Assembly: GCF_058153355.1 (NCBI RefSeq)
Contig: NZ_CM177019.1
Strand: one strand, 5' to 3'
Length of the DNA stretch: 64,000 nt
Shown here: positions 29,400 to 63,906 of the stretch, one piece after another
Position numbering within the stretch: the stretch's first letter is position 1
Layout of the letters: every line of letters begins with the position of its first letter
Notes under the pieces: model-generated
Database searches by the model: none
Told to the model about the DNA's origin: nothing
The model's input: the letters and a program-made list of their open reading frames with translations, nothing else
Position numbers and translations under genes: made by a program

Positions 29400-29420
29400 G
29401 AGCGTTGATAATTAGAAAGT

Positions 29421-29449
29421 AAAAAGCCTGCTCGAAAGCAGGCTTTTTT
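29421..29449. terminator. bidirectional rho-independent terminator between ldtA and tRNA-Asn
   Basis: Hairpin AGCCTGC-TCGAA-GCAGGCT flanked by an A-run and a T-run. Confidence 0.8.
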
Positions 29450-29454
29450 GAATT

Positions 29455-29530
29455 TGGCTCCTCTGACTGGACTCGAACCAGTGACATACGGATTAACAGT
29501 CCGCCGTTCTACCGACTGAACTACAGAGGA
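29455..29530 (-). tRNA. asnV: tRNA-Asn (GUU)
   Basis: 76-nt exact match to the E. coli tRNA-Asn sequence, with anticodon loop CUGUUAA and 3' CCA encoded. Confidence 0.97.
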
Positions 29531-29856
29531 ATCGTGTGAACGGGGCGCATATTAATGGCAGTGCATGGTGATGTCAAAGGGTGAAATGCATTTTTTTGTT
29601 TGTTTGCTGCCAATTTCAACAAAGTGGTGAGCTTTCAATCTTATTGGGTAATGAACCATCGTGGTGCATACCCTCCTTTTATAGGGCAGGTGAATGCGAC
29701 TGCAGATAAAAAGAGCCAATGACGAATCTATCATAATCTCTTATTTGACAGTTGGTTAGCTTGCGCATCAACGCCAAAATAGAACTGGCAAGCATCTTGC
29801 ATTCTGGTTGTAAGTAATGGCGGCACTTGGGCCGACTCTTAAAAACCGGAGGCAAC

Positions 29857-30774: not shown

Positions 30775-30875
30775 GCGTTATATCGGGATGGAATAAGATG
30801 CGGGTTTTTATTATTTGTTATGCCGGGCATTAGACTTTAACAATAACGGAAAATCTGAACTGCCCGGAGTTTACC

Positions 30876-31826: not shown

Positions 31827-31827
31827 C

Positions 31828-31856
31828 AAAAAGCCCGCTATAAAAGCGGGCTTTTC
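31828..31856. terminator. bidirectional rho-independent terminator between cbl and tRNA-Asn
   Basis: Hairpin AGCCCGC-TATAAA-GCGGGCT followed by TTTT. Confidence 0.8.
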
Positions 31857-31863
31857 AGAAATT

Positions 31864-31939
31864 TGGCTCCTCTGACTGGACTCGAACCAGTGACATACGG
31901 ATTAACAGTCCGCCGTTCTACCGACTGAACTACAGAGGA
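31864..31939 (-). tRNA. asnU: tRNA-Asn (GUU)
   Basis: 76-nt sequence identical to the other tRNA-Asn copies. Confidence 0.97.
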
Positions 31940-32099
31940 ATCGCTGTTGAGGCACATCTTAACGGCGAAAAATCTTTTGTCAAACCCGATTTTTAATTTT
32001 CCCAACTGTTTGCCGTTTCTATCAACAGTTTGTTGCATTTGCAGACAATTTGTTGGCGAAAATCTTTGCAGCTTTGCTGATTCTCCCTCATTATTTGAA

Positions 32100-33587
32100 A
32101 TGTGGTTTCACTTTCTGCAATTAAGGTCGGCTTTGAATATCTCCTCTGCTTTACGCCAGGTTGTTCACGGCACTCGCTGGCACGCTAAACGCAAGAGCTA
32201 CAAAGTGTTGTTCTGGCGCGAGATAACCCCGCTTGCTGTTCCTATCTTCATGGAGAATGCCTGTGTCCTGTTGATGGGGGTTCTGAGCACTTTTCTGGTC
32301 AGCTGGCTGGGAAAAGATGCGATGGCCGGCGTGGGATTGGCGGACAGCTTCAATATGGTCATTATGGCTTTTTTTGCTGCTATCGATCTTGGTACTACTG
32401 TCGTTGTGGCATTTAGTCTCGGTAAGCGGGATCGACGACGAGCGAGGGTGGCGACGCGGCAGTCATTGGTGATCATGACGTTGTTTGCCGTACTGTTGGC
32501 AACGCTTATTCATCATTTTGGCGAGCAAATTATTGATTTCGTCGCGGGTGATGCCACGACAGAAGTTAAAGCACTGGCGTTGACTTATCTGGAGCTGACG
32601 GTACTCAGTTATCCAGCAGCTGCCATCACTTTGATTGGTAGCGGGGCACTTCGTGGTGCAGGGAATACGAAAATACCGCTACTGATTAACGGTAGCCTGA
32701 ATATTCTTAATATTATTATTAGCGGCATATTGATTTACGGCCTTTTCTCCTGGCTGGGACTGGGATTTGTCGGGGCTGGGTTGGGGTTAACCATTTCTCG
32801 TTATATTGGCGCAGTGGCAATTTTGTGGGTGCTGGCGATTGGTTTTAATCCTGCGCTAAGGATTTCGTTAAAGAGCTATTTTAAACCGCTGAATTTTAGC
32901 ATTATCTGGGAAGTCATGGGGATTGGTATTCCCGCGAGTGTCGAATCAGTGTTATTTACCAGTGGTCGGTTATTAACCCAAATGTTCGTTGCCGGGATGG
33001 GGACCAGTGTTATTGCCGGAAATTTTATCGCGTTTTCAATTGCGGCTCTTATCAACTTACCCGGAAGTGCGCTCGGCTCTGCTTCTACGATCATTACAGG
33101 CCGAAGGTTGGGTGTAGGACAGATAGCGCAAGCAGAGATTCAGTTGCGGCATGTGTTCTGGCTTTCCACTCTTGGATTAACGGCCATCGCCTGGCTAACG
33201 GCTCCCTTTGCCGGGGTTATGGCATCGTTTTACACCCAGGATCCACAGGTTAAACATGTCGTTGTGATTCTGATTTGGCTAAATGCTTTATTTATGCCTA
33301 TTTGGTCTGCCTCATGGGTGCTACCCGCTGGATTTAAGGGTGCTCGCGATGCACGTTACGCCATGTGGGTTTCTATGTTGAGCATGTGGGGTTGCCGGGT
33401 TGTAGTCGGTTATGTGCTGGGAATCATGCTTGGCTGGGGTGTGGTTGGTGTCTGGATGGGAATGTTTGCCGACTGGGCTGTGCGGGCCGTGCTGTTTTAC
33501 TGGCGCATGGTTACTGGACGTTGGCTGTGGAAATACCCTAGACCTGAGCCGCAAAAGTGTGAAAAAAAGCCAGTTGTGTCGGAATAA
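32100..33587 (+). CDS. yeeO: MATE-family efflux transporter YeeO
   Basis: 495-aa polytopic membrane protein; start set at MWFHFLQ because the longer track ORF overlaps the tRNA gene. Confidence 0.85.
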   Translation: MWFHFLQLRSALNISSALRQVVHGTRWHAKRKSYKVLFWREITPLAVPIFMENACVLLMGVLSTFLVSWLGKDAMAGVGLADSFNMVIMAFFAAIDLGTTVVVAFSLGKRDRRRARVATRQSLVIMTLFAVLLATLIHHFGEQIIDFVAGDATTEVKALALTYLELTVLSYPAAAITLIGSGALRGAGNTKIPLLINGSLNILNIIISGILIYGLFSWLGLGFVGAGLGLTISRYIGAVAILWVLAIGFNPALRISLKSYFKPLNFSIIWEVMGIGIPASVESVLFTSGRLLTQMFVAGMGTSVIAGNFIAFSIAALINLPGSALGSASTIITGRRLGVGQIAQAEIQLRHVFWLSTLGLTAIAWLTAPFAGVMASFYTQDPQVKHVVVILIWLNALFMPIWSASWVLPAGFKGARDARYAMWVSMLSMWGCRVVVGYVLGIMLGWGVVGVWMGMFADWAVRAVLFYWRMVTGRWLWKYPRPEPQKCEKKPVVSE

Positions 33588-33687
33588 ACGACAAAGTGCA
33601 GATTATTTCAGCAAACGATTTCAAATTTAAAAAACAGGCTTTGACATTGTGGATGGGCGTCGCTAATATTCGCCTCGTTCTCACGAT

Positions 33688-33763
33688 TCCTCTGTAGTTC
33701 AGTCGGTAGAACGGCGGACTGTTAATCCGTATGTCACTGGTTCGAGTCCAGTCAGAGGAGCCA
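33688..33763 (+). tRNA. asnW: tRNA-Asn (GUU)
   Basis: 76-nt TCCTCTGTAGTTCAGTCGGTAGAACGGCGGACTGTTAATCCGTATGTCACTGGTTCGAGTCCAGTCAGAGGAGCCA. Confidence 0.97.
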
Positions 33764-34213
33764 AATTTTAGTTTTGAGACATCTCTATGAGTCTCAAGAC
33801 AGTTAAAAAATAAAAATTATTTTTACCCGGTTACCTTGTAAAAAAGTGACTGGGTTTTTTGATTTCTGTGTTTCGTGCGCTTAATCGAGTCTCACGCTTC
33901 AGTTAGCAAATTGCCCCCCAACAGACATCACGATTCGCAAGGTCAAAAAATTCGTTCCGTGAAGTACCGTACAAAGGTATAGAGAAAAATGCCTTATGCG
34001 GGATGTTGCTGTCGCGTTTTTATCGGGAAACTAAACGTAATTGCCACTTTGTCTTCTGTAATCAGAAAAAGAAAACCTGGAATTTTAATAAATATTATTT
34101 CTCTGGGGCCGGTATTTTTATAATCAATATGACGAGTTGAATATTATATTTATTATAAGAATCATATGAGATTAAAGAAATCTGCCATAAAGACAGATTT
34201 CTTTAAAATATAA

Positions 34214-47888: not shown

Positions 47889-48200
47889 GCTTACCTTCCC
47901 TGAACGAGCTAACATAAATGCGCCCTTTCTAGCACAGCGAAAAAATATAAATCCTGATAGCAATATGATTGAAAATTAATAACTTTTCGTTAAGCAGTTT
48001 TGGGTGTGAGTTGCAAGAGGGGAGACTACTGAATAACTCAAGTTTTATAATCGAGGGGAAAATGGTGATGGTGTCCATAGCAAAACGCCCTCAACCATAA
48101 AGATCGAGGGCGCTTAAGATGTCAAAAACCCGCTATCCGTTAAAAAGCAATGCTCAACTAAGGTCAGTGACATTGCGCTAAAAAGCGAATTTTTAGAATT

Positions 48201-48216
48201 TGGCTCCTCTGACTGG
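48201..48216 (-). other. 16-nt remnant of the tRNA-Asn 3' end (asnT position): direct repeat marking an island junction
   Basis: TGGCTCCTCTGACTGG is identical to the 3' end of the three intact tRNA-Asn genes, then diverges; it lies 312 bp upstream of yeeJ, where asnT sits in K-12. Confidence 0.8.
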
Positions 48217-48367
48217 GATCGCCGTAGCCATTAACTGGCTGATTGGTAAGCTAAACCTAAAAGTTGGGGTTGTCAAGACCACCAGAATGACCACCTCTTT
48301 ACTTTGAAACTAACGACATATTTTACGCTCATCCCTCAGTCAATCGTAAGCTAATAAACAACACCAA

Positions 48368-50122
48368 CTACGGTGCTGGTATTATAGTCTCTGCTCCAAA
48401 CCAATTTCCAAGTGTTGTCAGTGCCGCAGGTGACAAAGCTTGGGTGAAAAGGATCGCAAGGCGCTTTTGGGGTCTGGAACAAGCGACGTAAAACAAATTT
48501 CGGTTTCGTTCAAATGAGTCTTGCTTATCGACTGGAATCGTTTGGGCTCCAGCGAATTCCAACATTTCTCCGAAGTTATACTGGTTCCACCCACGCCCAA
48601 CAACAACCAGGACATTCTCAAATTCAGCACCTTTCACACCATGTTTAGTTTCGAATGGAGAATATCCATCAAGATAACGGCGAAGTGATCTGACCTCCGA
48701 ATAGGGAATATTTTTCAGCTTTTCAAGTTCTTTTAATCTTCGGGGCATTTCAACATCAGCCGTTCTGTCAAAATGGAGTAACTCCTGCTCAAATTATTCA
48801 ACCTTATCTGGAAGTCTTGGCTTCCGTTGAGCACGGATGAACTCAATTACGTCGCCAATTGTACCAGTTTCGCGGAGAGCAAGAAGTTGCGTCATTACAT
48901 TGTGCCAACTCACCTTATCTGAATGTCTACGCAACAGTGGTGTAATACCGCCAAGCGCATTAAACATCTCTCCATACTTACGAGCGGTAAAGGCATCACA
49001 GGCGGGTTCCAGTTTGTCTACAAAAAAGGCTATATGTTCATGTTCCTTTTTCGTGAAGGATTCATTGTATTTAAACGCTGCCACTATATTTGAATAGCCC
49101 TGCTGATTGGCTAAAAGTCGATGGGTCAACATGAGAATTTTGGTGTGATTGGGAGAAAAGTCCCAACCATCCTGCTCCAACGTTGTTTTAACTCGTTCCA
49201 GAGTAGCCTGGCCTTCACATAATGGTAAATCACCACTCCAGTGCACGCCTTTTTGACGAACTCCTTGCCAATTGTTTGTATGGAAAACGCGTACTAAACC
49301 TGTAGCTTCGGGATCTTTAACACACTGCGGTAGCTCAGGTCTCATACGATTAAGGGCATCAACAATTATCTTGTCCGAACGAAAATTGGCTTCTTTACCT
49401 ATTTCAACCACGTCCTGATGTTCCAGCTTTCCACATCCACCACCATAGATTTTTTGCCAATGGTCGCCGAAAAAACCAAATAAAGGTGCTCTAGCTTGTC
49501 CAAGAAAATGCCGTTTAATTGCCTCAATCCAGTTTTTATCAGTGTCCTGGTACTCATCGACCAGAATGATTGGAAAGCGTTCTGCAATCACTCTACGGAA
49601 TTTTTCGTGCTCCATGAGTGAGACAGTTAAAGAAAGAACATCGTCATGATGAAGAGTTATACGATGGTCGCGAATAGAGCGATGTCCAAGATTATACTCA
49701 ACACTACGATTCCCAAGGCTTCCACCAACTTCTTCGAGCTTTTCTGTCCATGTTGGCATTGTCTCAATCAGTTCTCTCAACGGTTTTTGAAAGCTGCTTA
49801 TTAACGACCAACAGAACGCATGATTGGTATCACAAAAAACGATGGGGCTTCGATCTGTTCGCGCGACGATTTCATCCTTCGCCACGTTAGTAAAGGTGAT
49901 GCAGGCAATTTGCTGGCTACGTTTTTCAAATAAATCCTTATTTCGCTCAATCAAGAATCGAAGTGCCTTAATAAGGGAATACGTTTTACCCGCACCAGCG
50001 CCAGCTTCCAGCCGGAAGCTTCGTCCTTCACTGAGGCAAGCATACATAGATTCCAAAGCTCGCTGGCTAGCAGCTTCGGCGGGCGAATGGATCTCAGACA
50101 TCAGCGCTGGCTCCTTCTTCAA
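48368..50122 (-). pseudogene. UvrD/PcrA-like SF1 helicase (GajB-like), interrupted by one in-frame TAA
   Basis: Motif I AGAGAGKT and motif II ILVDEYQDTD in the 442-aa ORF; after the TAA at 48794..48796 the same frame continues into the C-terminal helicase domain (YVACSRPQKRLAIL). Confidence 0.7.
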
Positions 50123-52166
50123 TACTAGTTGTGGCTTCTACAACTTGCGCCAATACTGGATCTTGTGTCATAAGCTCATTGCTGCCAGCTAACCAGCGGA
50201 TTCCATCGACTATGTATTTGGGGGCGTTCCATTCTGTCTCTGTAATCGCGTATTTCAATGCAAATTCTGATTTTTTCCACTCAGACGCTTTATCACGGGC
50301 TTCTATTTCCAGTTCCTGAGAATTTCTCCCTACCAGCCCGAATAAAGCCGAATTTGCAAGGATAAATGCATCTTCGAATGTGCGTCCGCAGGGGCCATCT
50401 GTCACTTCTGCACATTGATAGGCAATACGATTTCCATTACGAGCTTTATCATCGTCACTCCTGGCAATCAAACCAGCTAATGTGAAAGGGGTATCTTCAG
50501 AGAACCATGCTTTCAAACAAGCATTACTGGAATATGTACCAAGATGAACAGCACATGCCTGACCTCCTGCTCTTTGGACTGCGTCCAGATCTGTTATGAT
50601 CAGACTCTGAAGCTCAAGAAACGCTAATAACTCGAAGAACAAATGAGCGTAAGCACCGCCGACTTCCATCACCGTTGCGTACTGGCTCGACAGCTTCGGT
50701 CTCTCTGGTTCGGCTGATTCTAGTTTTTTGATGATGACGGGAAGCAATAATCGCTCGCTTAACCCCTCGACGAGAATCGCTTTATCTGCGAAAAACAGAT
50801 CACAACGTGTCAACGTCATGTATTGATGAAGGAATTTTTTATCTTCAATTAGAATATGATTCAGCCCTTTACGCAGATCTTTAATTTTGGTTTTTCGGAC
50901 ACCTTCCTGAGTCCCCTGTGCTGGAGCCCCCAGAAAATAGCGAATACTCTCGAAACCAGCCGCATTGGCAATGTGAGACGAGTGTGTAGACACGACAAAT
51001 TGTACAGGCCAGGGTCTCCTGTCCTCAGTGCCATCCACCAGTTGTTGTGCAATTTTGGCAAGTTGACGAATAAAAACCTCCTGCATTTGTGGATGCAGAT
51101 GGGCTTCTGGTTCTTCAATGAATATCAGGTGTACACCCGGCTCAGTAACTTCAGCACAAAATGCTTTATAGAAACCAGCTAATTGCAAGAGAATAAATAT
51201 CAGATTACGTGTACCAAGACCGTTATATGACTCCGGTAATGCGATTCCGCTATAACCTGAATAGCGAACTTTCGTGAAGTTTGATAGCAACTTGCTAACA
51301 TCGAGCAATGTTTCAGTATGTAACTCCTGTCCTCCCAATCCTGGGTATCCAAAAGTTTCTAGAGCCGGAATCAGACTGTTGAGCTGGTTTCCGAAGTTTG
51401 TGTCAATTTGAGTCTGAATGTCCTGAACTGCACCTTTCAATGCATCAGCAATTTGTTTATCAGCAGCTCCCGCAGATGCCGAAGAGGCTGTTGCGAAAAG
51501 ATTTTCAACCGTTTTAGCCAGTACATCGGATTCTCGGGACGTCACATCATCAAGTCCTCGCTGAGCGTTGATAAAGCCCGATTTGACCAGACCGCGCAAT
51601 GCACTAGGTGGTAACTCGCGACGATTATCAGGATCGTTGGGATCTTCAGCCCATATTTTCACACAGAAATTATTAGGGATACGTTCTCGCAATATACGGA
51701 GGAAAGCGAGGCGGTCTTCTCTAGAAAGTGGCATTTCAGTCTGACTTTCGAGAAATTGTGTCAGATGGCCATCTTTCAATTCGTATCGGACTACTACCTG
51801 CGCTTCAGAACACGCGGGATCCAAATCGATAACAAAGGGACTCAATGGACCTAATTGAGGTTGTGCAGGGTCGTACTGGAATTTCAGTCGAAGTTCAATG
51901 GCGGGAATAAGTTCTCGAACGAGATGATCTTCCATGCCTTCCTTAAGTGCTTCCAGAACATCACAAAAACGGTCGTAGCAGGAACTGGAAAAGTCTTCAA
52001 GTTGGAAAGTAGCACTACCATCTGCTAAGAATCTGCGTATTATTTCTGAGAGTGATGTTTTTCCGCTGTTGTTTCGTCCAACAATGACGGTCGTCTGTTC
52101 CTCCAATACAAGCTCTGCATCAGCTAAAAGACGGAAGTTTTTAATTTCGACCTGATGAATGTGCAT
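50094..52166 (-). CDS. OLD-family ATP-dependent endonuclease (ABC-type ATPase + Toprim; GajA-like)
   Basis: Walker A GRNNSGKT, Walker B/D-loop LIFIEEPEAHLHP, Toprim motifs ILVEGLSE and ITDLD; its end overlaps the helicase start by 29 bp. Confidence 0.8.
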   Translation of the reverse strand: MHIHQVEIKNFRLLADAELVLEEQTTVIVGRNNSGKTSLSEIIRRFLADGSATFQLEDFSSSCYDRFCDVLEALKEGMEDHLVRELIPAIELRLKFQYDPAQPQLGPLSPFVIDLDPACSEAQVVVRYELKDGHLTQFLESQTEMPLSREDRLAFLRILRERIPNNFCVKIWAEDPNDPDNRRELPPSALRGLVKSGFINAQRGLDDVTSRESDVLAKTVENLFATASSASAGAADKQIADALKGAVQDIQTQIDTNFGNQLNSLIPALETFGYPGLGGQELHTETLLDVSKLLSNFTKVRYSGYSGIALPESYNGLGTRNLIFILLQLAGFYKAFCAEVTEPGVHLIFIEEPEAHLHPQMQEVFIRQLAKIAQQLVDGTEDRRPWPVQFVVSTHSSHIANAAGFESIRYFLGAPAQGTQEGVRKTKIKDLRKGLNHILIEDKKFLHQYMTLTRCDLFFADKAILVEGLSERLLLPVIIKKLESAEPERPKLSSQYATVMEVGGAYAHLFFELLAFLELQSLIITDLDAVQRAGGQACAVHLGTYSSNACLKAWFSEDTPFTLAGLIARSDDDKARNGNRIAYQCAEVTDGPCGRTFEDAFILANSALFGLVGRNSQELEIEARDKASEWKKSEFALKYAITETEWNAPKYIVDGIRWLAGSNELMTQDPVLAQVVEATTSIEEGASADV

Positions 52167-52303
52167 ATGTCCCTCATGATCTATTTATAGTCTATCGATA
52201 AATCTGATGTTATTGCTCTACCTGTAATTTTCATTCTTACGATTGTTTTGCAATGCAAAATATACCTCAGGCCATATTTATTCCTGAGGTATGTTTTGGT
52301 ATC

Positions 52304-53802
52304 TCACTCGGTCAAAGAGGCCTCACGAACATCATCCGGTTGAGGTTGGCACTCTTTCCATCGTCGAATAAGCGTTGCTACACAGGGATTACCCGCCAGT
52401 TGATTCATTCTGACCCAGTCAACATCCACTAATCCAGCCAGAAGTTCAGGATTTAGTTCCCCTTGTAATGGGTGCCACTGGCGAATACTGGGCTGGCGCT
52501 GAATTTGAGGTTGAAGGGGAGCCAAACTCCCGACGATAACGTAATTTTGTTCTGGATCATGCCAGAGTCGTGTAATGCCAGGTATGTTTTTCAACCAGTT
52601 TCGAGGATCACCTAAAGGTAAATCAAAAACACGAGAGAGTAATTTATTCCATGACGCTATTAATGACGAACTGGCTTTCTTTGCCAATTTTTTCTCACCT
52701 GCCAGGAGTGCATTTTTTCTTTCTGGCCATTTGGAAAAAATATAACTTTTTAAAATATCGTAGGTAACATTAAGTTCATTATTGTAATAATACTCACGCA
52801 AAGCACAATTCCACAACTCGCACAGCAAGTCTAGTTCACGCATGAGTGTATTTTTATTGGTATCTGATAATTCACCTTCCTCATTAAGTTGCGCTATATA
52901 AAAAGACAGTATCTTTGTATCTGGTAAGAGCCAGTGGTTTAGTGAGAACTGCTGACTTTGAGTATCAAGAACAGTCATTAATGCATCTAAATTCTCAGGG
53001 ATCATATTAGGGGTGTCGTATTTCGGATCCTGAAGAAGAATGGATATTTCTTCCATTCTATGAATAATTATTGTCAATCTCTGAGCAAATCTGGTTAATT
53101 TATCTTCACTGCTGCCAAAACCTTGCGCTATTGATTCAGGCCGATAAGTATAAGGCCATTTTTTATTTAAGAGAGTAAGAAGAGCCTCGACAGAGGTATC
53201 AAACAGTTTCAGCCTTTCATCGCAGGCTTTAACTAAATCCGGGCAAGAAGGATTAAAAGGTAAAATTACTGGGCGGTCTTGTTCAGCGGTGAATAAATAT
53301 CCTTCGGTGATAACCAATAGGTCATGAGTCAGTAAGTCTTTCTGTTCTGTCAGGCTTGTACTGATTCTTGTTTCTTTGCAAAGTAAAAGATGCTTCAACG
53401 CAAGTTCTTTGTACGCAACTTCGGTATTACGCGCCAATGCATCAAGACAGGTCTTTTTCTCAAGATCTTGAATGGCATAGTCGTAATAGCAAGAATCTAT
53501 CGCAGGGATGAGTCGGGTAGTCCCATCGGGAGTATCCTGCTCAATCAATAAATTATCAACAACAGAATCACCACTAAGATCAAACGGATTAACGTTGATA
53601 TGCTGGCACGCAATTTTAGTTCTTAGATTCTGAGTTAACGGATAGCGGTCATCAATTATACCACGGATCTGATCTAACAAAACAAGTATGCATATAGAGC
53701 TGTCTTTTTCCAATTTTTCAAATGATGAGGGTTCTGAATCCGGTAATAATTCCAGCTGTACATCAGGATACTTTTTGTTCAACACCTTTTGTATCTGCGC
53801 AC
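52304..53802 (-). pseudogene. large hypothetical protein gene, 5'-truncated at the junction with the IS66 remnant
   Basis: About 500 codons of unique sequence; the N-terminal 66 codons of the track ORF are antisense IS66 sequence, and no native start codon is retained. Confidence 0.5.
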
Positions 53803-54843
53803 TTCCCCGTGAAACCCGGGTCATCCAACCGGAAGAAGAATGCTGCCCGGCCTGTGGTGGCGGGCTCAGTCCTCTGGGATGTGATGTGTCAGAACAACTG
53901 GAGCTTATCAGCAGCGCCTTTAAGGTTATCGAAACACAACGTCCGAAACTGGCCTGTTGCCGGTGCGACCATATCGTGCAGGCTCCGGTGCCTTCAAAAC
54001 CCATTGCACGCAGTTATGCCGGAGCGGGGCTTCTGGCCCATGTTGTCGCTGGAAAATATGCAGACCATCTGCCGTTATACCGCCAGTCAGAAATATACCG
54101 TCGTCAGGGCGTGGAGCTGAGCCGTGCCACACTGGGGCGCTGGACAGGTGCTGTTGCTGAACTGCTGGAACCGCTGTATGACATCCTGCGCCAGTATGTG
54201 CTGATGCCCGGTAAAGTCCATGCCGATGATATCCCCGTTCCGGTCCAGGAGCCGGGCAGCGGTAAAACAAGGACTGCCCGGCTGTGGGTCTACGTTCGTG
54301 ATGACCGTAACGCCGGTTCGGAAATGCCTCCGGCGGTCTGGTTCGCGTACAGCCCGGACCGGAAAGGTATCCATCCACAGAATCATCTGGCCGGTTACAG
54401 CGGAGTGCTTCAGGCCGATGCTTACGGTGGTTACCGGGCGTTGTACGAATCCGGCAGAATAACGGAAGCCGCATGTATGGCTCATGCCCGGAGAAAAATC
54501 CACGATGTGCATGCAAGAGTGCCCACCGACATCACCACGGAAGCCCTGCAGCGTATCGGTGAACTGTATGCCATCGAGGCAGAGGTCCGGGGCTGTTCAG
54601 CAGAACAGCGTCTGGCGGCAAGAAAAGCCAGAGCCGCGCCACTGATGCAGTCACTGTATGACTGGATACAGCAACAGATGAAAACACTGTCGCGTCACTC
54701 GGACACGGCAAAAGCGTTCGCATACCTGCTGAAACAGTGGGATGCACTGAACGTGTACTGCAGTAATGGCTGGGTGGAAATCGACAACAACATCGCAGAG
54801 AACGCCTTACGGGGAGTGGCCGTAGGCCGGAAAAACTGGCTCT

Positions 54844-56667
54844 GTGTGTCACGAAGGAGTACTTATGGCAACAATGTGAAAATTGCAGCATAAGTTATCC
54901 ATGCTCTGAGGTGGGTGGAGGTGGGCCCTCCGGTCAGGGTTTACAGGAGCACTGACCAAACGACCCGGTGCTGCTTCATTCTAAGGAATGAGGTGGTGAG
55001 CGACTCGGGAAAAGGCAGAGATCTACTGTCACGTGGGGTTCGGGAAGCTGAACGAAAGTAAACTGTCCGATGAAGCATCGAAATCTTAGATGATGTCAAA
55101 ATGGGGCCGTACAGCCGTCCCCTGATAAGCGCAGAAGACACCTGCTTACTGACTGCGCGGCATCCGGTGTGAAGGCAGCAGGATCCCGGGCCAGACCATC
55201 TCAGGGAACGTGAGAACCTGTTTCCGGCACGTATCGGGAAACAGGGGCGGACCCATTCGTAGTAGTGATGAAAGATCTGTAATGGGTCTGGAGCGAAGGG
55301 ATGGGGATCACATTCATTGCAGAAGACACAACCCAAAAGGGGATGACGTAACTGATGCAACGAAAATCATTTGAAATACCAAAAGCACTGGTCTGGGCAT
55401 CATATCTGGATGTGCGTCGCAACAAGGGAGCCCCCGGATGCGACGGGCAGACTTTGAAAATGTTCGACCAGCAACGTGATGGCAATCTATACAAGATCTG
55501 GAACCGGCTATGTTCGGGAACATGGTTTCCGCCACCAGTGCTGGAAAAACGGATCCCGAAGTCGAATGGCAAGGAACGCATTCTGGGGATCCCAACAGTA
55601 TCCGATCGAATTGCTCAGGGAGCGATAAAACTTTTCATGGAAGAAAAGCTTGACCCGATTTTCCATGCTGATTCATATGGTTACCGACCAGGCAAATCAG
55701 CTCATGACGCTCTGAAACAATGTGCCATCCGGTGCTGGCGTTATAGCTGGATACTGGAAGTGGACATCAGTGCGTTTTTCGACCATGTGAGACATGATCT
55801 GGTGCTCAAAGCTCTGGAACACCACGGGATGCCTAAATGGGTCATCCTGTACTGTCGACGCTGGATGGAAGCGCCAATGCAGAGTTGTGAAAATGGAGAA
55901 TTAATAACCCGAACACGAGGCACTCCGCAGGGCGGGGTCATTAGTCCACTACTTGCTAACTTGTTCCTTCACTATGCATTTGATTTGTGGATGGAAAGAG
56001 AATATCGGGGGGTACCGTTTGAGAGGTACGCTGACGATATTGTAGTACATTGTTCACGAATGAGTGATGCAACAAGGCTGAAGAACAGGTTATCGGAGCG
56101 CTTCTCGGAAGTCGGGCTGGTCCTGAATGCAGGGAAAACGAATATCGCCTACATTGACACGTTTAAAAGGAGAAACGTCGCAACGAGTTTCACCTTTCTC
56201 GGATATGACTTCAAAGTGCGTACGCTGAAGAATTTCAAAGGCGAACTGTACCGAAAATGCATGCCGGGTGCGTCAAATGCAGCAATGCGCAAAATAACAG
56301 AAACAATCAAGAAGTGGCGTATACATCGCTCAACAGCTGAGAGTTTGCTGGATTTTGCGAGGCGCTACAATGCGATAGTGAGAGGCTGGATCGAGTACTA
56401 CGGAAAGTTCTGGTCCAGAAATTTCAACTATCGACTGTGGAGTGCAATGCAGTCACGTCTGCTCAAGTGGATGCAGTCTAAATACAGACTTTCGAACCGG
56501 AAGGCTCAGCGAAAGCTGACGCTGGTAAGGAAGGAGTATCCGAAGCTATTTGTTCACTGGTATTTACTACGTGCATCAAATGAGTGATCAAGAGCCGTAT
56601 GACGCGAGAGTGTCACGTACGGTTCCGTGAGCAGCCGGGGAGTGAAATTCTCTCCGGCTGACTCGAC
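54844..56667 (+). mobile_element. bacterial group II intron (1824 bp) in sense orientation within IS66 tnpC
   Basis: Starts GTGTG immediately after the exon 1 homology and ends ...AC before exon 2; domain V-like GAGCCGTATG...CACGTACGGTTC at 56592..56625; contains the RT/maturase ORF. Confidence 0.75.
55355..56587 (+). CDS. group II intron reverse transcriptase/maturase (no endonuclease domain evident)
   Basis: RT motifs including GTPQGGVISPLLANLFL and YADDIVVH, plus a maturase X domain (RGWIEYYG); 410 aa. Confidence 0.85.
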   Translation: MQRKSFEIPKALVWASYLDVRRNKGAPGCDGQTLKMFDQQRDGNLYKIWNRLCSGTWFPPPVLEKRIPKSNGKERILGIPTVSDRIAQGAIKLFMEEKLDPIFHADSYGYRPGKSAHDALKQCAIRCWRYSWILEVDISAFFDHVRHDLVLKALEHHGMPKWVILYCRRWMEAPMQSCENGELITRTRGTPQGGVISPLLANLFLHYAFDLWMEREYRGVPFERYADDIVVHCSRMSDATRLKNRLSERFSEVGLVLNAGKTNIAYIDTFKRRNVATSFTFLGYDFKVRTLKNFKGELYRKCMPGASNAAMRKITETIKKWRIHRSTAESLLDFARRYNAIVRGWIEYYGKFWSRNFNYRLWSAMQSRLLKWMQSKYRLSNRKAQRKLTLVRKEYPKLFVHWYLLRASNE

Positions 56668-56852
56668 TCGCAGGTTCCGACAGCGGTGGCGAACATGCGG
56701 CGGTGTTGTACTCGCTGATCGGCACATGCCGTCTGAACAATGTGGGGCCAGAAAAATGGCTGCGTTACGTCATTGAGCATATCCAGGACTGGCCGGCAAA
56801 CCGGGTACGCGATCTGTTGCCCTGGAAAGTTGATCTGAGCTCTCAGTAAATA

Positions 56853-58796
56853 TCAATACGGTTCTGGCGAGCCGCTTACGTTTAATCGGGAAATCTCATA
56901 TTTTCGGTTCATCATTAATGGCAGAAGGAAGCGTTGATGCTGTTGACGAGAAATTTCACCAGCACGGAGCAGTTTTTCTAGGTTGCGTAACTGGAAACCC
57001 GCATGCGCCATATCATCATTGTTCTCTGTATTGGCCTGAAAAGCGGAAAAGTAATAATGCCGTGATTCCAGCAAATATAAACAGGTCAGATCCATATTTT
57101 TGCCAGATTCAGGCAGGCTGAAATCCAGATTCACACCATTCGTCGCAGAGGCGGTCTGAGTCAGCACAATGACAATACGCCGGGAGGCAAATGCGGCCTG
57201 ATAAGCATCACTAAAGCCCTTTTTCTTCTGACATTCTGCGGTTAACAGACAAATCAGCGCAGGCTCATTATGTATGCTCACTGGGATAAACACATCAGCA
57301 AAATTTTTTAGTAGAGGATCATCAGATAAAGGTTGTTCCATTTTTAACCATGCGAGGTATTCTCTACTTTGTGTTGCTATTGTAGTGGTAAGCCATTTTC
57401 TTAAATAGGCTATGGAATTCACGAAAGCAAGATGCCCCCGGTGTTGAGGTCTTTTTCCCGCAAGATCCAATACATTAAGCAATTTTAGCAGTATATTTTT
57501 TCGATATTCTGATTCGAAATCTGATGAGGGGTCATCGCCATTCTGGAAAAAATCGGGGGCTAGCGAAGCGAGCAGATCAACACAATGCGGGTTATTCTTT
57601 ATGCTATTGAAATCTTGAATCTCAGCATTCAGTTGTGTGTTTCTGATATTTTCTTTGCTGTTATTGATCTCTTCAATAGCTAAATACTGCAACTGGAAAT
57701 CATCAGCCGTCTGGACATAAGGTATCGGTTCTTTAAACCACTCGACAGGTCGTTTTTCAAAAGTTGTTCCCAGAAAACTTTGTGTAACAGCAGGGTTGCG
57801 TGCTTCTGCAATATAACGAAGAGCTGAATTAATCCACCGGACATCGAAGTGATTACAGGCTCTTTCAATATATGACGTAGCCGACAGTGCAAAGACAAGA
57901 TTACGACTGGCGAGAGAAAGCAGCAGACCTTCTGCCGTCGTGGGCAGAAAGGCACGTTTGATCTGTATCCGTAACGGATCGATATCCGTATCTGAGACAT
58001 TCTGTTTCAGCAACCAATTGGTCAAGCCAAAAATACTGGCATGAGTATTTGGCAAAATATTACTTTTCCTTAATTCCCGTAGTTCCGGCAGGTCAGTACG
58101 CGGTAACAAAAATCGGGACATATTGGGCAGGGTTGAGCCGTAGTATGAAGGCCTGTAATCATTAACGGGGTCGAACAGAAGTCGGGTTAACTTTTTAATG
58201 TATTCATACGCTTCATCTTCACTTGCAGTCAGGTCGGTCAACATTAGGCTAAACTGTCGAATGAATTTTTCCATCAAGCGTAAAAAATCACTGATGTCGA
58301 TAGTCTGATCGCTATCCTGAAGCGGAGAGTCTGGCCTGATAATTTCGTATCCATGTTCCGCTTTCCGCATAATAAGCCGTTCACTGGTCACCAGTTGATC
58401 GGAACGGAATAAATAATGCTCACCAAAGGGTTTATTATCCAGATATTGCTGAAGAGGAATAACCAGCGATCTGGCATGTGTTAAATCAGCATGTTTTTCT
58501 GTTAATGCACTATCCAGATCATTAATAAATTTTTCTAGACGTTCACGGATCATAGGTGCAGGTTCCATTTCAACATACTGCATACGTTGTAGTAATCTGC
58601 GTCCCCCGTCGAGCAACTGACCCAGACACTCAGGTGGTTCCTGAACCCATTGCGCCTGTGCCAGATACTCTTGTAATACCTCAGACTGGTAATCAAATTC
58701 ATCGATGAAAATGATGTAATTACGCAGCTCTTTGCTGGACATTTTTACTTTGCGACGCCCATCGTAAAACGATGAAACCATCTTTTGAGTCGTCAT
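56853..58796 (-). CDS. large hypothetical protein; C-terminal 8 codons and stop supplied by the IS66 terminus
   Basis: 647-aa ORF; N-terminal IIFIDEFD resembles a Walker B / DExx motif; the last codons (SGSPEPY) are encoded within the IS66 right inverted repeat. Confidence 0.5.
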   Translation of the reverse strand: MTTQKMVSSFYDGRRKVKMSSKELRNYIIFIDEFDYQSEVLQEYLAQAQWVQEPPECLGQLLDGGRRLLQRMQYVEMEPAPMIRERLEKFINDLDSALTEKHADLTHARSLVIPLQQYLDNKPFGEHYLFRSDQLVTSERLIMRKAEHGYEIIRPDSPLQDSDQTIDISDFLRLMEKFIRQFSLMLTDLTASEDEAYEYIKKLTRLLFDPVNDYRPSYYGSTLPNMSRFLLPRTDLPELRELRKSNILPNTHASIFGLTNWLLKQNVSDTDIDPLRIQIKRAFLPTTAEGLLLSLASRNLVFALSATSYIERACNHFDVRWINSALRYIAEARNPAVTQSFLGTTFEKRPVEWFKEPIPYVQTADDFQLQYLAIEEINNSKENIRNTQLNAEIQDFNSIKNNPHCVDLLASLAPDFFQNGDDPSSDFESEYRKNILLKLLNVLDLAGKRPQHRGHLAFVNSIAYLRKWLTTTIATQSREYLAWLKMEQPLSDDPLLKNFADVFIPVSIHNEPALICLLTAECQKKKGFSDAYQAAFASRRIVIVLTQTASATNGVNLDFSLPESGKNMDLTCLYLLESRHYYFSAFQANTENNDDMAHAGFQLRNLEKLLRAGEISRQQHQRFLLPLMMNRKYEISRLNVSGSPEPY

Positions 58797-58798
58797 GA

Positions 58799-59572
58799 TC
58801 AGCAGGTGTTGCTTTTCGTCACGCCAGGCAATGGCGGGCAGAATGCGCCTGACCCAGACGTGGCGACGGAAATCTGCAACTCGTTGCCTGGCTTGGCTGC
58901 CTGCGTGAGTTCATGTTCTTCGCCATATTTTTCTTTTTGTTTCTTGGCTTCTTTTTCCAGCAATTTGATATTCTGAATCAGAGTTATCTCCACCGCTGCG
59001 CATGATTTGATTAATGACTCTTTCTCACTGGCGATGGCCGTCTGAAAACGCGTCGGATATCCTTTCAGCGATTTGTTAATATGCAGTATGTTTTTGCAAT
59101 TTCTACGCAATTTGTCGGCGATATCCTGAATGGCAAACAAATTTCTGTCTTCCAGGATATTGATGGAGTCAAATGGATCGGGAAGTGAGTCTGCGGAAAT
59201 ATTATTCTCATGAGGCAAGGGGGTGGCCTCGATGGCAGAAACGATCTGTTCATCTTGTGCATAGAGCACGCTGACGGTGAATGGTTCCCCGTTACTGTCT
59301 TTATGCGCTGCCGTTTTCTCATAAATGTCGTGCAAAATATTCCAGCGATGGGTAACCAGAATGGCTTGAGAGCCTGATTTTTTTATCGTCTCCAGCGCCG
59401 GGAGAGCGTTATCGGCATAGCCAGAGCGGTAGAGTGAGCTGGTTTTTCCGCTACCCGTAGGCCCCTGAAGCTGACAAAATCCTGCGATACGACGGGATGT
59501 TTTGGATTTTTTTGCCTGAGAAAGGGTGTATTCAATAACGGCATTGTAGGAACGTATTAAAGGGGCACTCAC
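58799..59572 (-). CDS. P-loop NTPase (helicase motif I-like GPTGSGKT)
   Basis: 257-aa ORF with Walker A GPTGSGKT; stop lies 2 nt before the ATG of the downstream 647-aa ORF. Confidence 0.5.
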   Translation of the reverse strand: MSAPLIRSYNAVIEYTLSQAKKSKTSRRIAGFCQLQGPTGSGKTSSLYRSGYADNALPALETIKKSGSQAILVTHRWNILHDIYEKTAAHKDSNGEPFTVSVLYAQDEQIVSAIEATPLPHENNISADSLPDPFDSINILEDRNLFAIQDIADKLRRNCKNILHINKSLKGYPTRFQTAIASEKESLIKSCAAVEITLIQNIKLLEKEAKKQKEKYGEEHELTQAAKPGNELQISVATSGSGAFCPPLPGVTKSNTC

Positions 59573-60075
59573 ATTTCACCTCATCCGTGTCAGGTTATCG
59601 AAGAGTAGAATTTCAGCAAATTCATGTTACACCGAACGGGTATCATTTCAATGTTTAATAATAATTTCCCCTTATAAAACAACGCTTATAATACATTCGC
59701 AGGTCAGATGATTTATCGGTGTGTTATTTGTTTGAATTTGGTGTTGTGGTTTTCTTTTTTTAACAATCTTCGATCTTCCTTCCACGACTTCCCCTTGCCG
59801 TTTTCAACCGAAAGCGGTATCTTTCACTTGCACCTGCAAAATCAGGTGCCGGGATTGGAACCCCGAAATGTAACCATACTGGCGACACGTGACGCGTCTG
59901 CGTCTTTTTTTATGTCGCGCGCTTAGCTACACCAAAATTATGGTGGGCTGGGCGGGGGCACCGTAAGGTGCGCCGGTTCCAGTATGGCCGGTAGTTCCAA
60001 CCTCGTTCAGTCCACCACCCATGAGATTGGAACCTCTGGTGGTGGTTTTCAAACCACATACTGGAGGCTGCCTTT

Positions 60076-60543
60076 ATGGCTACGATCCCCACTCAGACAC
60101 ACCCGTTACTTGCTGTTCCCTTCAATGCTGCCACAGATTTTACCGTACTGGCAGACCACTGTGAAAACTTCGCCGAAACCCTGATCGAAAGCGACGACCC
60201 GGTGCTGCGGCTGGCGCTTTGCGGGCGGCTTGCCGCCTGTCTGACTCTGCTGCAACCCACGCTGAACGAACCCATCCCGTCCCATCTGACTGACAGCCTG
60301 ACCGTTGATGCTCTACCTGCCGATATGCCCCGATTTGTCCCCGACGCTGAATTACTTTGTGACTACTCACTGACGCTGGCGCAACTTCTTATCGGGCAGG
60401 GGATGCTGCCAAAAATGGAGCAGACGATAACTGGCTTATTATGTGAACTGGTCTGGTATTTTGCCGCTGAAATGAAAGCCCCGCGTTGGCTGCGTACTGC
60501 CGGTGGCGTGAAGTTTATCGATGGTGTGGAGGCCAAAGCATGA
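60076..60543 (+). CDS. hypothetical protein (155 aa)
   Basis: GGAGG SD; stop overlaps the ATG of the Ner-like gene (ATGATG/TGA). Confidence 0.55.
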   Translation: MATIPTQTHPLLAVPFNAATDFTVLADHCENFAETLIESDDPVLRLALCGRLAACLTLLQPTLNEPIPSHLTDSLTVDALPADMPRFVPDAELLCDYSLTLAQLLIGQGMLPKMEQTITGLLCELVWYFAAEMKAPRWLRTAGGVKFIDGVEAKA

Positions 60544-60746
60544 TGCAGTCTGACTGGCATCCTGCCGACATTATCGCCGGGCTGAAAAAACGTGGCACTT
60601 CGCTGTCAGCGCTTTCGCGTCAGGCTGGGCTGGCGTCCTCCACGCTGGCTAATGCGCTTACCCGCCGCTGGCCCAAAGGTGAAAGATTGATTGCCGAAGC
60701 GTTAGATGTTGCGCCTGAGAACATCTGGCCTTCGCGCTATCGCTGA
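60540..60746 (+). CDS. Ner/Nlp-like DNA-binding regulator
   Basis: 68-aa product; WHPADIIAGL...STLANAL...WPKGE...IWPSRY matches the Ner/Nlp family from recall. Confidence 0.75.
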   Translation: MMQSDWHPADIIAGLKKRGTSLSALSRQAGLASSTLANALTRRWPKGERLIAEALDVAPENIWPSRYR

Positions 60747-61093
60747 TGTCCTTCCGGCGCAGCCACGATACGGAAGCTGCGCCGCATTTCGTTTATCTGA
60801 TTTGTCATAATCCTTTGAACCGCAAAAACAGTTTTCTATTATCGGCCTTCTTACCACGAACTAAGCTCCCGCCTGTACAAAATGCTTCATGACCTGAAAG
60901 AAGCGCCTGATGTATCAGGATGGTCGCCGTTTTACCGGCAATGCCGCCTTTGAAAACTGCCGGATCTGTCCTTCGATGGATTAAGGCTTTCTTCATACTT
61001 TATTACGCTAAGGAAATCACAATGAATCTGATGAATAATTGTGCATCGCCTGCCGTAGATGTTATATTAAAATATAATATTCGGAGGTGCTCT

Positions 61094-61351
61094 ATGTATA
61101 CAACTCGCCTGAAAAAGGTCGGCGGATCCATCATGCTGGCGGTTCCCCCCGCCGTGCTGAAAACGCTGGAGCTGTCGACGGACAGCGAAGTGGGTATGAC
61201 CATTGATAATGGCTGCCTGATTATTGAACCCCAGAAACGGCCCCGTTATTCGCTTGAGGAGCTGTTGGCGCAGTGCGATCCGCACGCAGAAATGAGCGAA
61301 GAGGATCGGGAATGGATTGATGCGCCTGCGGTGGGCAAGGAGATCCTGTAA
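61094..61351 (+). CDS. pemI: PemI-like antitoxin (AbrB/MazE fold)
   Basis: GGAGGTG SD; 85-aa product closely resembling recalled PemI (TTRLK.VGGS.ML.VPPA...SL.ELLAQCDP). Confidence 0.85.
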   Translation: MYTTRLKKVGGSIMLAVPPAVLKTLELSTDSEVGMTIDNGCLIIEPQKRPRYSLEELLAQCDPHAEMSEEDREWIDAPAVGKEIL

Positions 61352-61684
61352 ATGGACAGAGGGGAAATCTGGCTGGTTTCACTGGATCCGATTGCAGGTC
61401 ACGAGCAAAGCGGAAAACGTCCGGTGCTTATCGTATCGAAGGCATCGTTTAACAAGCTGACCCGGCTACCCGTTGTTGTTCCCGTTACCAGCGGTGGAAA
61501 CTTCGCCCGTGCAGCCGGTTTTACCGTCTCACTGGACGGTGCGGGAACAAAAACAACGGGCGTTATTCGCTGCGACCAGCCCAGAACCATTGATATGGGA
61601 GCCCGGAGCGGAAAGCGACTGGAACGTATACCCGATGCTGTCGTGAATGAAGTGCTGGCCCGACTGGAGGCCATTCTGAGCTGA
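61352..61684 (+). CDS. pemK: PemK-like mRNA interferase toxin (MazF/PemK family)
   Basis: 110-aa product starting immediately after the pemI stop; RGEIWLVSLDP...GKRPVLIVS pattern. Confidence 0.85.
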   Translation: MDRGEIWLVSLDPIAGHEQSGKRPVLIVSKASFNKLTRLPVVVPVTSGGNFARAAGFTVSLDGAGTKTTGVIRCDQPRTIDMGARSGKRLERIPDAVVNEVLARLEAILS

Positions 61685-61702
61685 TGCTTTTTATGTAAAC
61701 TG

Positions 61703-61740
61703 AATGATGGCGCTGTCATATACAGCGCCATCATTTTTTA
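61703..61740 (+). terminator. rho-independent terminator after pemK
   Basis: 14-bp stem AATGATGGCGCTGT / ACAGCGCCATCATT with 5-nt loop, followed by TTTTTTA. Confidence 0.8.
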
Positions 61741-62122
61741 TAACGACAAGTGATTAAAAAATCCTTTTGCAGGTAAAAACAGTTTTTCCTTTCTCCGCCA
61801 GCGGTACTGGCATAGTCTCCCCCTTGCCCTATGCTGTCGTTGACAGCGCCACGCTTCACAACCTGAAAGAAGCGCCTGTTATCAGGAGGTTGAGCCCTTT
61901 ACCGGTGCAGACCTTTGCAAACACCGGGTCGCAGAACATCGCGACGGAGGCCAGAGTTTTAACACGATACGTCCTTTTACTGCGCCAGCCTGCTGGTCTG
62001 AATCTGCCCCGCGCCGGAATTTTCCCGGTCAGCTTATATTTGCTGACACCCTCAGCACCTTTTACCTCACGGGCTGCGGCATGCATTTGCCGCAAGGCAT
62101 TTGCTGACGCGTGCCCGTAAAA

Positions 62123-62244
62123 CTGCACCAGACGGTAAATTTTCAGACGCTGCACCAGACCCGTGCGTCACTTTAACCGCGCAGAGCGGGAAAGTGACGC
62201 ACGCAATCCCTTTCGACCTGCACCAGAAAACTCAACTGCGCCAG
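62123..62244 (+). repeat. cluster of 4 CTGCACCAG(AC) motifs upstream of the recombinase gene
   Basis: Copies at 62123, 62150, 62218 and (CTGCGCCAG) 62236; a 12-bp-arm palindrome GTGCGTCACTTT / AAAGTGACGCAC at 62163..62202 lies between them. Confidence 0.7.
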
Positions 62245-62535
62245 CTCACGGCTGGAGTCTGACACCGCCTTTTCAGGCCATTTACCTATAAGGAGAACAT
62301 GAATCGATACCGAGGCGGATCCGGACGATCCGGGGGATAACCCGCGCAAGCGGGCGGCTGCTCAGAGAGCACAACCGAAGCCCCACCACACCTCAACGGC
62401 TGCCGCCCCGGCGCTCAGGTATCGTTCGCAGCCCCGACAAAAAAACAGGGGCTATCGGCCTGTGCGCCGGGGAAAGCTGTATCAGTGTTGGTTTTTTGGG
62501 GGATGAGTTTGCGGCAATCATGAAAAGGGGAATGT

Positions 62536-63423
62536 ATGGGGATACTGGAGCAGGAAATGACGCGACTGGCGCAGCAGGCGGGTGGCAGCTACAAAACTGT
62601 GGATGACCGCATCAGGCTGGCGCAGCGGTTTTGTGAGCGTCTGGTTCTGGCGCAGAACGTACAAATCCGCCGGGTGGAGCAGCTTAAGGCGCGGCATATT
62701 GAAGGCTATGTTCGTGAACGGCTGGCGCAGGGCATCACAAAGCGTTCCCTGCAAAATGAGATGGCGGCGGTGCGCTGCATTCTGAAACAGGCCGGGCGTG
62801 ACAGGCTGGCGCAGAGTGAGCGGCTGAATAACCGCTCGCTGGGATTGTCCGGAGCATCCCGTAACGGGACGAAGCTGGCTATTACACTGGAGCACTATCG
62901 TGATGTGCTGGAGACCGCCCGCGTAAAAGATCCGGGGCTGGCGGCAGCGCTGGAGCTCTCAAGGTTGATGGGATTACGTTCGCAGGAGGCGGTGCAGAGT
63001 GTACAGTCGCTGAAAACGTGGATACAGGCGCTGGAGCGTGGTGAGTCCCGGTTAACCGTGGTGTTCGGCACCAAAGGCGGACGGCCCCGCGAGACGATTA
63101 TTCTTGATGCTGGCGTAGTTAAAAAAGCGCTGGATAATGCGCTGGTGGTGGCTGAGGATCGTCACGGCAGGCTGATAGATAAGCCCGATCTGAGAAGCGC
63201 GATGAAATACTGGCACAGCCAGGCGTCGGGTCTTGGTTTAACTGGCGCATATTCCCCGCACTCGTTGCGCTATGCCTGGGCGCAGGATGCTATTCGTCAT
63301 TATCTGGCGCAGGGATTTTGTGAGAAGGAAGCGCTGGCGATGACGGCGATGGATTTGGGTCACGGCGACGGGCGCGGGCGGTATGTGGCGCAGGTTTACG
63401 GGCGAAAGGGGGATGCTGATTGA
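62536..63423 (+). CDS. tyrosine recombinase (phage-integrase family, 295 aa)
   Basis: Box I-like TKGGRPRETII and box II-like HSLRYAWA...LGHGDGRGRYVAQVY (catalytic Tyr); no N-terminal arm-binding domain evident. Confidence 0.75.
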   Translation: MGILEQEMTRLAQQAGGSYKTVDDRIRLAQRFCERLVLAQNVQIRRVEQLKARHIEGYVRERLAQGITKRSLQNEMAAVRCILKQAGRDRLAQSERLNNRSLGLSGASRNGTKLAITLEHYRDVLETARVKDPGLAAALELSRLMGLRSQEAVQSVQSLKTWIQALERGESRLTVVFGTKGGRPRETIILDAGVVKKALDNALVVAEDRHGRLIDKPDLRSAMKYWHSQASGLGLTGAYSPHSLRYAWAQDAIRHYLAQGFCEKEALAMTAMDLGHGDGRGRYVAQVYGRKGDAD

Positions 63424-63466
63424 TAGCTTCAGACTTGCAATATGATGTTATTCATCGTTTTCCGTA

Positions 63467-63562
63467 CAAAATTATTTGCCTCAAATAATTTTGGGTGATT
63501 TCCTATTAATCCCGGGTTATTCATCGTTATTCACCGAAAAAATTTCTACGTAGAAATTTTTT
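63467..63562. promoter_or_regulatory. two perfect palindromic operator-like sites (12-bp arms with 3-bp spacer; 13-bp arms, no spacer) with associated direct repeats
   Basis: CAAAATTATTTG-CCT-CAAATAATTTTG at 63467..63493 and AAAAAATTTCTAC/GTAGAAATTTTTT at 63537..63562; TTATTCATCGTT direct repeat at 63449 and 63518. Confidence 0.6.
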
Positions 63563-63618
63563 GTTCGATTTCCTCTCAATAAAAATGCTTCTGAACGGTA
63601 TGGCCTATTAACAGGCCT

Positions 63619-63881
63619 CTGGTGCAGTATTACGGTATTTTACTGATGATTGCGCCAGCAAAAGGAAAAGGCCAAATAATGGTAAAGGGCGACTAAGGGT
63701 AACAGCGCCAGACCGGAAAGGGCCAAAAGGCTAAAAGGCCTTAACACTGGCGCAGTTTGATGTTTATCCAATAATATCTGGCGCAGTCCTGACATAGACA
63801 GGTGACAGCGGACTGGTGCAGTAAATGGTGACATTGAACTGGTGCGGATACGATGTATTGGGAAATCAGTTTCTGGTGCAG
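63619..63881 (+). repeat. array of 6 direct CTGG(T/C)GCAG motifs downstream of the recombinase gene, inverted relative to the upstream cluster
   Basis: Copies at 63619, 63747, 63778, 63813, 63839 (CTGGTGCGG) and 63873; spacings 26-35 bp for the last five. Confidence 0.7.
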
Positions 63882-63906
63882 ATTATCTGGCAGCTATCGT
63901 CTGGAG

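Follow-up and report, generated by a model that had tools for sequence, protein, structure and literature searches.

Remains of a ddmD-like helicase-nuclease gene, very probably from a DdmDE-family module, in a decayed defence island of Escherichia coli

A stretch of 64,000 nucleotides of contig NZ_CM177019.1 (RefSeq assembly GCF_058153355.1), termed the window in the following, contains two adjacent open reading frames (ORFs) of 257 and 647 amino acids (aa), the first with a P-loop (GPTGSGKT) and the second with a Walker B-like sequence (IIFIDEFD) located 28 residues past its ATG. An original prediction, made from the letters of the DNA, had offered two explanations for this pair, two coupled genes or one frameshifted nucleoside triphosphatase (NTPase) gene, and had regarded the surroundings as a decayed defence island. 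Here, the two ORFs are assigned, with a probability of about 0.88, to the wreck of a single DdmD-type gene, the first gene of a two-gene module of the DdmDE family that is dead in the window. The positions of the ORFs, their 2-nt spacing and both motifs were found as predicted in the ORF list and in the raw sequence. At the ORF boundary, the TGA of the 257-aa ORF (58801-58799) is followed by two bases (58798-58797) and by the ATG of the 647-aa ORF (58796-58794), and the two ORFs are therefore in different frames. The coordinates of the features are summarized in Table 1.

Table 1. Features of the disrupted gene and its neighbours in the window, listed from the 5' end of the gene
Feature	Position	Strand	Details and basis
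5' fragment of ddmD-like gene	58799..59572	-	257 aa, GTG start, GPTGSGKT; ORF list
5-bp tandem duplication	58889..58898	.	TGGCTTGGCT on the plus strand, one TGGCT in LF82; sole indel in window/LF82 alignment
Remaining ddmD-like coding sequence, native codons 228-896	56879..58888	-	Comparison with LF82 and family alignment
647-aa ORF	56853..58796	-	Carries NYIIFIDEFDYQ near N-terminus; ORF list
IS66 terminal sequence, 8 foreign codons and stop of 647-aa ORF	56853..56878	-	No alignment to E. coli homologue genomes; matches IS66-family transposon ends
5'-truncated IS66-family element, tnpC only	53804..56878	+	zf-IS66, DDE_Tnp_IS66 and IS66_C domains
3' remnant of ddmE-like (Argonaute-like) partner gene, native codons ~321-818	52304..53803	-	Comparison with LF82
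gajA, OLD-family ATPase-nuclease, 690 aa, apparently intact	50094..52166	-	PADLOC GajA, 2e-290
gajB, UvrD-like helicase, codon 436 of 577 changed from K to a premature stop	48368..50101	-	PADLOC GajB, 4e-267

The region was compared by megablast with 5426 complete E. coli genomes and was present in 25 of them, 24 at ~99% DNA identity, including LF82 and NRG857C (both adherent-invasive E. coli, AIEC) and PSUO2, and one at 82%. In the 24 genomes it is 98.9% identical to an annotated coding sequence (CDS) of 1300 aa. LF82 has one CDS of this length here (WP_001275764.1), followed 4 nt on by a CDS for 818 aa (WP_000982354.1) and then by CDSs annotated as 'ATP-dependent nuclease' and 'UvrD-helicase domain'; the 82% variant has the same gene layout. 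Only 72 relatives of the 1300-aa protein were found among 5.8 billion protein clusters, all of them single proteins, nearly all full-length (~1300 aa), and none split. The P-loop residues G37, T39, G40, G42 and K43 and the Walker B residues D289 and E290 are invariant in 37 diverse homologues; because of this invariance, and because of the 98.9% match to the 1300-aa CDS in 24 genomes, the ORF pair is not a product of chance. The 257-aa ORF corresponds to native codons 1-227, with motif I (GPTGSGKT) at residues 37-44, plus 30 out-of-frame codons and the stop, and the remaining coding sequence holds Walker B (DEFD, residues 289-292), motif III (SAT, 562-564) and motif V (around 804-815). Met258, an internal residue of the native protein, is the start of the 647-aa ORF, whose frame is open further upstream, back to the duplication listed in Table 1. 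Judged from these comparisons, both ORFs are the remains of one gene of 1300 codons, not two genes.

The gene was split by the 5-bp duplication, which is the one indel in the 2986 columns of the window/LF82 alignment and shifts the frame after codon 227. Removal of one TGGCT copy in silico restores an uninterrupted frame of 896 codons with 10 substitutions relative to the LF82 protein, and the frameshift is therefore recent. Programmed frameshifting was also considered and was ruled out, since the shift stems from a strain-specific duplication and the homologues are in one frame.

The 3' part of the gene has been replaced. The 647-aa ORF ends with '...EISRLN' (native N896) followed by IS66-derived 'VSGSPEPY' and the stop, with the junction between native and IS66 sequence at 56878/56879; as had been proposed, the last eight codons are IS66 terminal sequence and the native C-terminus is lost, for every genome match begins at 56879, not at 56853, and no homologue matches 56853-56878. 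Relative to the LF82 arrangement, 2173 bp (positions 9828-12000 of locus L001) are missing, and window 53804-56878, with the IS66 element and an intron, stands in their place. Codons 897-1300 of the ddmD-like gene, which encode helicase motif VI and the whole nuclease domain, were lost, and the same 2.17-kb deletion took codons 1 to ~320 of the downstream 818-aa gene. Of the two junctions, the right one is formed by the IS end, and the left one is internal to tnpC. Most simply, IS66 would have inserted at codon 896, and a later deletion would have started within the IS, removed the remainder of the gene and extended into the next one. The IS66 junctions of the window are shared by no complete E. 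coli genome searched, and the best matches span the IS66-plus-intron segment only. The window copy is an ordinary pseudogene and cannot work, because motif I is out of frame with motif II and the rest, motif VI and the nuclease domain are deleted, and the partner lacks its N-terminal 40%.

The intact protein was characterized using a family alignment of 37 sequences (A1), with motif invariance scored in 37-38 homologues. Helicase motifs of superfamily 2 (SF2) are represented by motif I (invariant G37-x-T-G-x-G-K43), motif II (invariant D289-E290), motif III (invariant S562-A563, with T564 nearly invariant), a motif V-like block at 804-815 (G811, N813 and L814 invariant) and motif VI (invariant Q915-x2-G918-R919-x2-R922). 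A C-terminal nuclease pattern is also invariant (E1144...E1170-x2-D1173...D1184-A-K1186), and its spacing is like that of the published nuclease site of Vibrio cholerae DdmD (VcDdmD; E1059, E1082, D1085 and D1100), the fold of the last 100 aa lying outside the structural model described below. When the family profile was compared with PDB sequences, one solved protein was matched, DdmD of Lactobacillus casei (9ix4; E=8.2e-8), through four collinear blocks that correspond to Walker B, motif III, motif VI and the nuclease; the PADLOC DdmD model (PDLC04130) matches 17 of the 37 family members (best 2.8e-13).

An AlphaFold (AF2) model was available for residues 1-1200 of the 1300, with a predicted local distance difference test (pLDDT) score of 85.6 and a predicted template modelling (pTM) score of 0.86. 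In a Foldseek search with this model, 20 DdmD chains rank above all other proteins: V. cholerae DdmD (9ezx_A) is matched with E=3.5e-31 and template modelling (TM) scores of 0.52/0.54 over ~1250 columns, and L. casei DdmD with ~1e-25; DinG/XPD helicases come next at ~1e-8. The undamaged protein of 1300 aa is distantly related to DdmD and combines an XPD/DinG-like SF2 helicase with a C-terminal PD-(D/E)xK nuclease. The NTPase fold expected from the original prediction was thereby recovered, and its proposed check on intact homologues gave one fused ORF of ~1300 aa whose native C-terminus is the PD-(D/E)xK nuclease domain.

The partner gene is represented in the window by its 3' remnant, which lies within a 566-aa ORF (52304-54004) whose first 69 codons are antisense IS66 sequence. 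The 818-aa family comprises 66 clusters, with 64 matches at E<=1e-3 among 1.84 billion representatives. An AlphaFold model of the partner (pLDDT 84, pTM 0.80) matches L. casei DdmE best (E=9e-18, TM 0.51/0.56) and V. cholerae DdmE at ~1e-15, followed by many prokaryotic Argonaute/PIWI proteins at ~1e-9. The pocket for the 5'-phosphorylated guide end in V. cholerae DdmE (VcDdmE) is formed by Y363, Q376, E401 and K405, and the invariant residues Y373-x12-Q386 and E452-x3-K456 of the partner family have the same within-pair spacing, which is a match of patterns, not a superposition. By its predicted fold, the 818-aa partner appears to be a DdmE-like ('long-C') Argonaute. It may also lack the canonical DEDX tetrad and be catalytically inactive: the strands predicted for its RNase-H-like core (481-485 and 564-568) carry no conserved Asp at their ends, and the invariant D735, D779 and D781 are located elsewhere, which is suggestive only.

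In each of the 13 loci examined, the ~820-aa gene comes directly after the ~1300-aa gene; the loci comprise two E. coli types, Serratia, Photorhabdus, Vibrio, Rheinheimera, two cyanobacteria, Spirochaeta and four metagenomic contigs. Twelve of these loci have the two genes overlapping or spaced by a few nt; in the remaining one, a metagenomic contig (L008), the gap is 176 nt. The loci are set in defence or mobile islands with type I restriction-modification genes, integrases, toxin-antitoxin pairs and, once, a BREX locus. Since the pair is kept in 13/13 loci, and the Gabija genes (gajA and gajB) follow it only in the enterobacterial cassette, the pair forms a module of two genes that is autonomous, with Gabija as its neighbour. 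As a separate observation, the pair of the BREX locus (44% identity; L013 7690-13999, metagenomic contig SRR26844659_75265) is flanked by brxR-brxA-brxB-brxC and by pglZ-brxL, which are on opposite strands, and takes the usual place of pglX.

Assignment of the pair to the DdmDE family is thus highly likely on motifs, fold and gene order. A number of results weigh against it. The E. coli 1300-aa protein alone gave nothing above threshold in Pfam, NCBIfam, PADLOC or, by phmmer, in PDB sequences, and the 818-aa protein likewise matched nothing in Pfam, PADLOC or NCBIfam, nor in PDB sequences by phmmer. The partner-family profile gave only noise against PDB sequences, without DdmE, and the PADLOC DdmE model matched 0 of 36 partner-family members; among ten remote partner relatives from a full library search, two matched it weakly (5.6e-5 and 2.5e-3). 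Identity to the solved DdmD and DdmE proteins is only 11-16%, and the present proteins are ~110-130 aa longer. The possible lack of a DEDX tetrad in the partner is judged from alignment and predicted strands, without superposition. Finally, the sole member of the clade in the paper describing the ApsAB system of E. coli (Nat Commun 2024, PMC11096173) is labelled 'Unclassified', not DdmD-like. For the two window ORFs, Pfam, PADLOC and NCBIfam give only sub-threshold P-loop, DEAD or AAA_11 matches, as they do for the intact LF82 proteins, and Pfam found weak DEAD matches and nothing further in all 37 family members.

In a more novel reading, the ~1300/~820-aa clade would be a third, separate branch of the superfamily, neither DdmDE proper nor ApsAB, perhaps with a different preference for guide or target (for example RNA guides, or phage DNA in addition to plasmid DNA) and perhaps, within the Enterobacterales, where Gabija genes always follow the pair, with a functional coupling to Gabija. 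This is considered unlikely; the preferred reading is that the clade is an unrecognised deep branch of a known kind of system.

Membership of the pair in ApsAB, and not in DdmDE proper, is improbable. The link consists in a PSI-BLAST search from ApsA that reached a member of the present clade, the protein WP_087038521.1 of Oceanisphaera profunda (1295 aa, 13% identity to ApsA), which is the protein listed as 'Unclassified' in Supplementary Data 8, as is its 769-aa neighbour (PMC11096173). ApsA is ~1500 aa long with a long N-terminal extension and the motifs GFGKS and DELH, whereas the present protein has 1300 aa with GPTGSGKT and DEFD; ApsB, with a Y-x3-K...QG...K motif, is reported to be without PIWI and PAZ and structurally unlike DdmE (PMC11096173), whereas the best structural matches of the present partner are DdmE proteins. 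No similarity was found to the available fragments of ApsA and ApsB (first 384 aa each, from CNR81D10), for which hhalign with the family profiles gave probabilities of 0.2-0.3%. The LF82 accessions WP_001275764 and WP_000982354 are absent from the searchable literature and from the supplements of the ApsAB paper.

Still less probable is an obligatory four-gene system composed of the helicase-nuclease/Argonaute pair and Gabija. The four genes are contiguous and co-oriented in the LF82-type and SC418-type islands of E. coli and in Serratia quinivorans, and in one cyanobacterial locus an OLD/AAA_15 fragment directly follows the pair. The pair occurs without Gabija in 9 of the 13 loci (Vibrio, Rheinheimera, Photorhabdus, Spirochaeta, the other cyanobacterium and the four metagenomic contigs), however, the gap between pair and gajA is 137 nt against 4 nt within the pair, and Gabija is known to act alone. 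The cyanobacterial OLD fragment has no tblastn similarity to E. coli GajA, and an ancient shared four-gene cassette was ruled out on the ground that the two are unrelated.

Two translationally coupled genes, for a small P-loop NTPase and a larger Walker B partner, might be read from the window alone, where the ORFs are 2 nt apart and the second has its own ATG, but this half of the original prediction has been refuted by the homologues (72/72 clusters are single proteins, nearly all ~1300 aa), by a boundary that is due to a 5-bp duplication absent from 24 near-identical genomes, by a second frame that is open past its ATG back to this duplication, and by the splitting of motifs I and II of one RecA-like domain over two proteins that it would entail. 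The other half, one frameshifted NTPase, holds, with a single ~1300-aa ORF in the intact homologues and 896 codons restored on removal of the duplication. Beyond what had been predicted, the NTPase is an SF2 helicase with a PD-(D/E)xK nuclease of the DdmD family, the gene at 52304 is its Argonaute-like partner, and one 2.17-kb deletion hit both genes.

A group II intron interrupts the IS66 tnpC at the deletion; its domains D1-D4 are at 54917-55033, its reverse transcriptase (RT)/maturase ORF at 55355-56587 and its domain V/VI at 56590-56667. The IS66-plus-intron composite is found at 97% identity in E. coli 536 and in several canine and avian isolates. The RT ORF was also considered as an RT- or retron-type defence gene and was ruled out, as it is a group II intron maturase between intron RNA domains.

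Downstream of the partner remnant, the Gabija genes comprise an apparently intact gajA and a gajB with a premature stop, and Gabija in the window is probably inactive too; the 257-aa and 647-aa ORFs have no GajA or GajB profile match. Three of the four defence genes in the window are broken, which supports the earlier view of a decayed defence island: what had been described as a truncated gene at 52304 is the 3' end of the partner gene, and the OLD/UvrD genes are those of Gabija, gajB being interrupted by a nonsense codon. Independent decay of the cluster was observed in E. coli SC418, where gajA and gajB are annotated in four pieces (L002 5173-8202), and in E. coli A13, where the annotation gives two hypothetical proteins for the 1300-aa gene.

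Just upstream of the start of the ddmD-like gene, an isrK Hfq-binding RNA (59830-59910, plus strand, 71 bits) and a C4 antisense RNA (59936-60022, plus strand, 83 bits) were predicted with Rfam; beyond these follow a small ORF, a helix-turn-helix (HTH) gene, a MazE/MazF-like pair (to 61684) and an integrase-domain gene (62536-63423). The stretch from the RNAs to the integrase looks like the immunity/regulatory end of a P4/CP4-like integrative island. The tRNA-Asn/nac/cbl/yeeO block, which is the island flank in LF82, is located at 29405-33768 of the window, ~15 kb from the defence cluster (48190-63900), and tRNA-Asn-like repeats of both orientations occur in the window, which suggests that the island is arranged otherwise than in LF82 or that the asn tRNA hotspot has received one more insertion.

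DdmDE and ApsAB are known Argonaute-guided plasmid-elimination systems, and such systems shape which bacteria keep resistance plasmids. According to the DdmDE literature, the Argonaute DdmE is inactive and binds short, 5'-phosphorylated DNA guides, which it pairs to plasmid DNA. Its next step is to recruit DdmD, an auto-inhibited dimer that comes apart and loads on the non-target strand; DdmD translocates 5'-3' and cuts single-stranded DNA with its PD-(D/E)xK domain. By analogy, and going beyond the gene unity, lesions, motif and fold homology and conserved pairing observed here, a DdmDE-like, DNA-guided degradation of plasmids is reasonably likely for intact copies of the present pair. The Argonaute would load short DNA guides and bind complementary plasmid DNA; it would recruit the helicase-nuclease to the displaced strand and activate it; and the helicase-nuclease would run 5'-3' and degrade the DNA, so that plasmids would be eliminated.

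A rare pair of E. coli island genes, annotated as 'hypothetical protein', is thereby placed in the Argonaute-plus-helicase-nuclease superfamily, as a deep branch that is missed by current defence-finder models. The window represents one more such module inactivated, by a frameshift and an IS66 deletion, along with the adjacent Gabija, in keeping with what has been reported for apsAB, whose inactivation stabilises plasmids.

Compared with known systems, Gabija adjoins the pair on the same strand of the same island and is also damaged in the window, but its proteins are unrelated to the pair and most loci of the pair are without it. ApsAB was described in the same species (E. coli ST38; PMC11096173) and likewise combines an SF2 helicase/PD-(D/E)xK nuclease with an Argonaute-like protein, in a genomic island and often inactivated, within one broad superfamily with DdmD (PMC11096173); it differs in the greater length and other motif variants of ApsA, and in an ApsB without recognisable PIWI or PAZ. 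With DdmDE (V. cholerae VSP-II island and L. casei), the present pair shares the gene order of helicase-nuclease then Argonaute, the defence-island setting, the XPD/DinG-like core motifs I-VI, the C-terminal PD-(D/E)xK nuclease with its E...ExxD...DxK pattern, and the full-length fold matches to DdmD and DdmE; the Y-x12-Q and E-x3-K pattern of the partner may, going by its spacing, correspond to the MID pocket of DdmE. It differs from DdmDE in its larger proteins (1300 vs ~1190 aa and 818 vs ~690-712 aa) at low identity, in a partner that is undetected by DdmE sequence models, in a window copy that is a pseudogene, and in the hosts of its clade, which are Enterobacterales, Vibrio, cyanobacteria and Spirochaeta.

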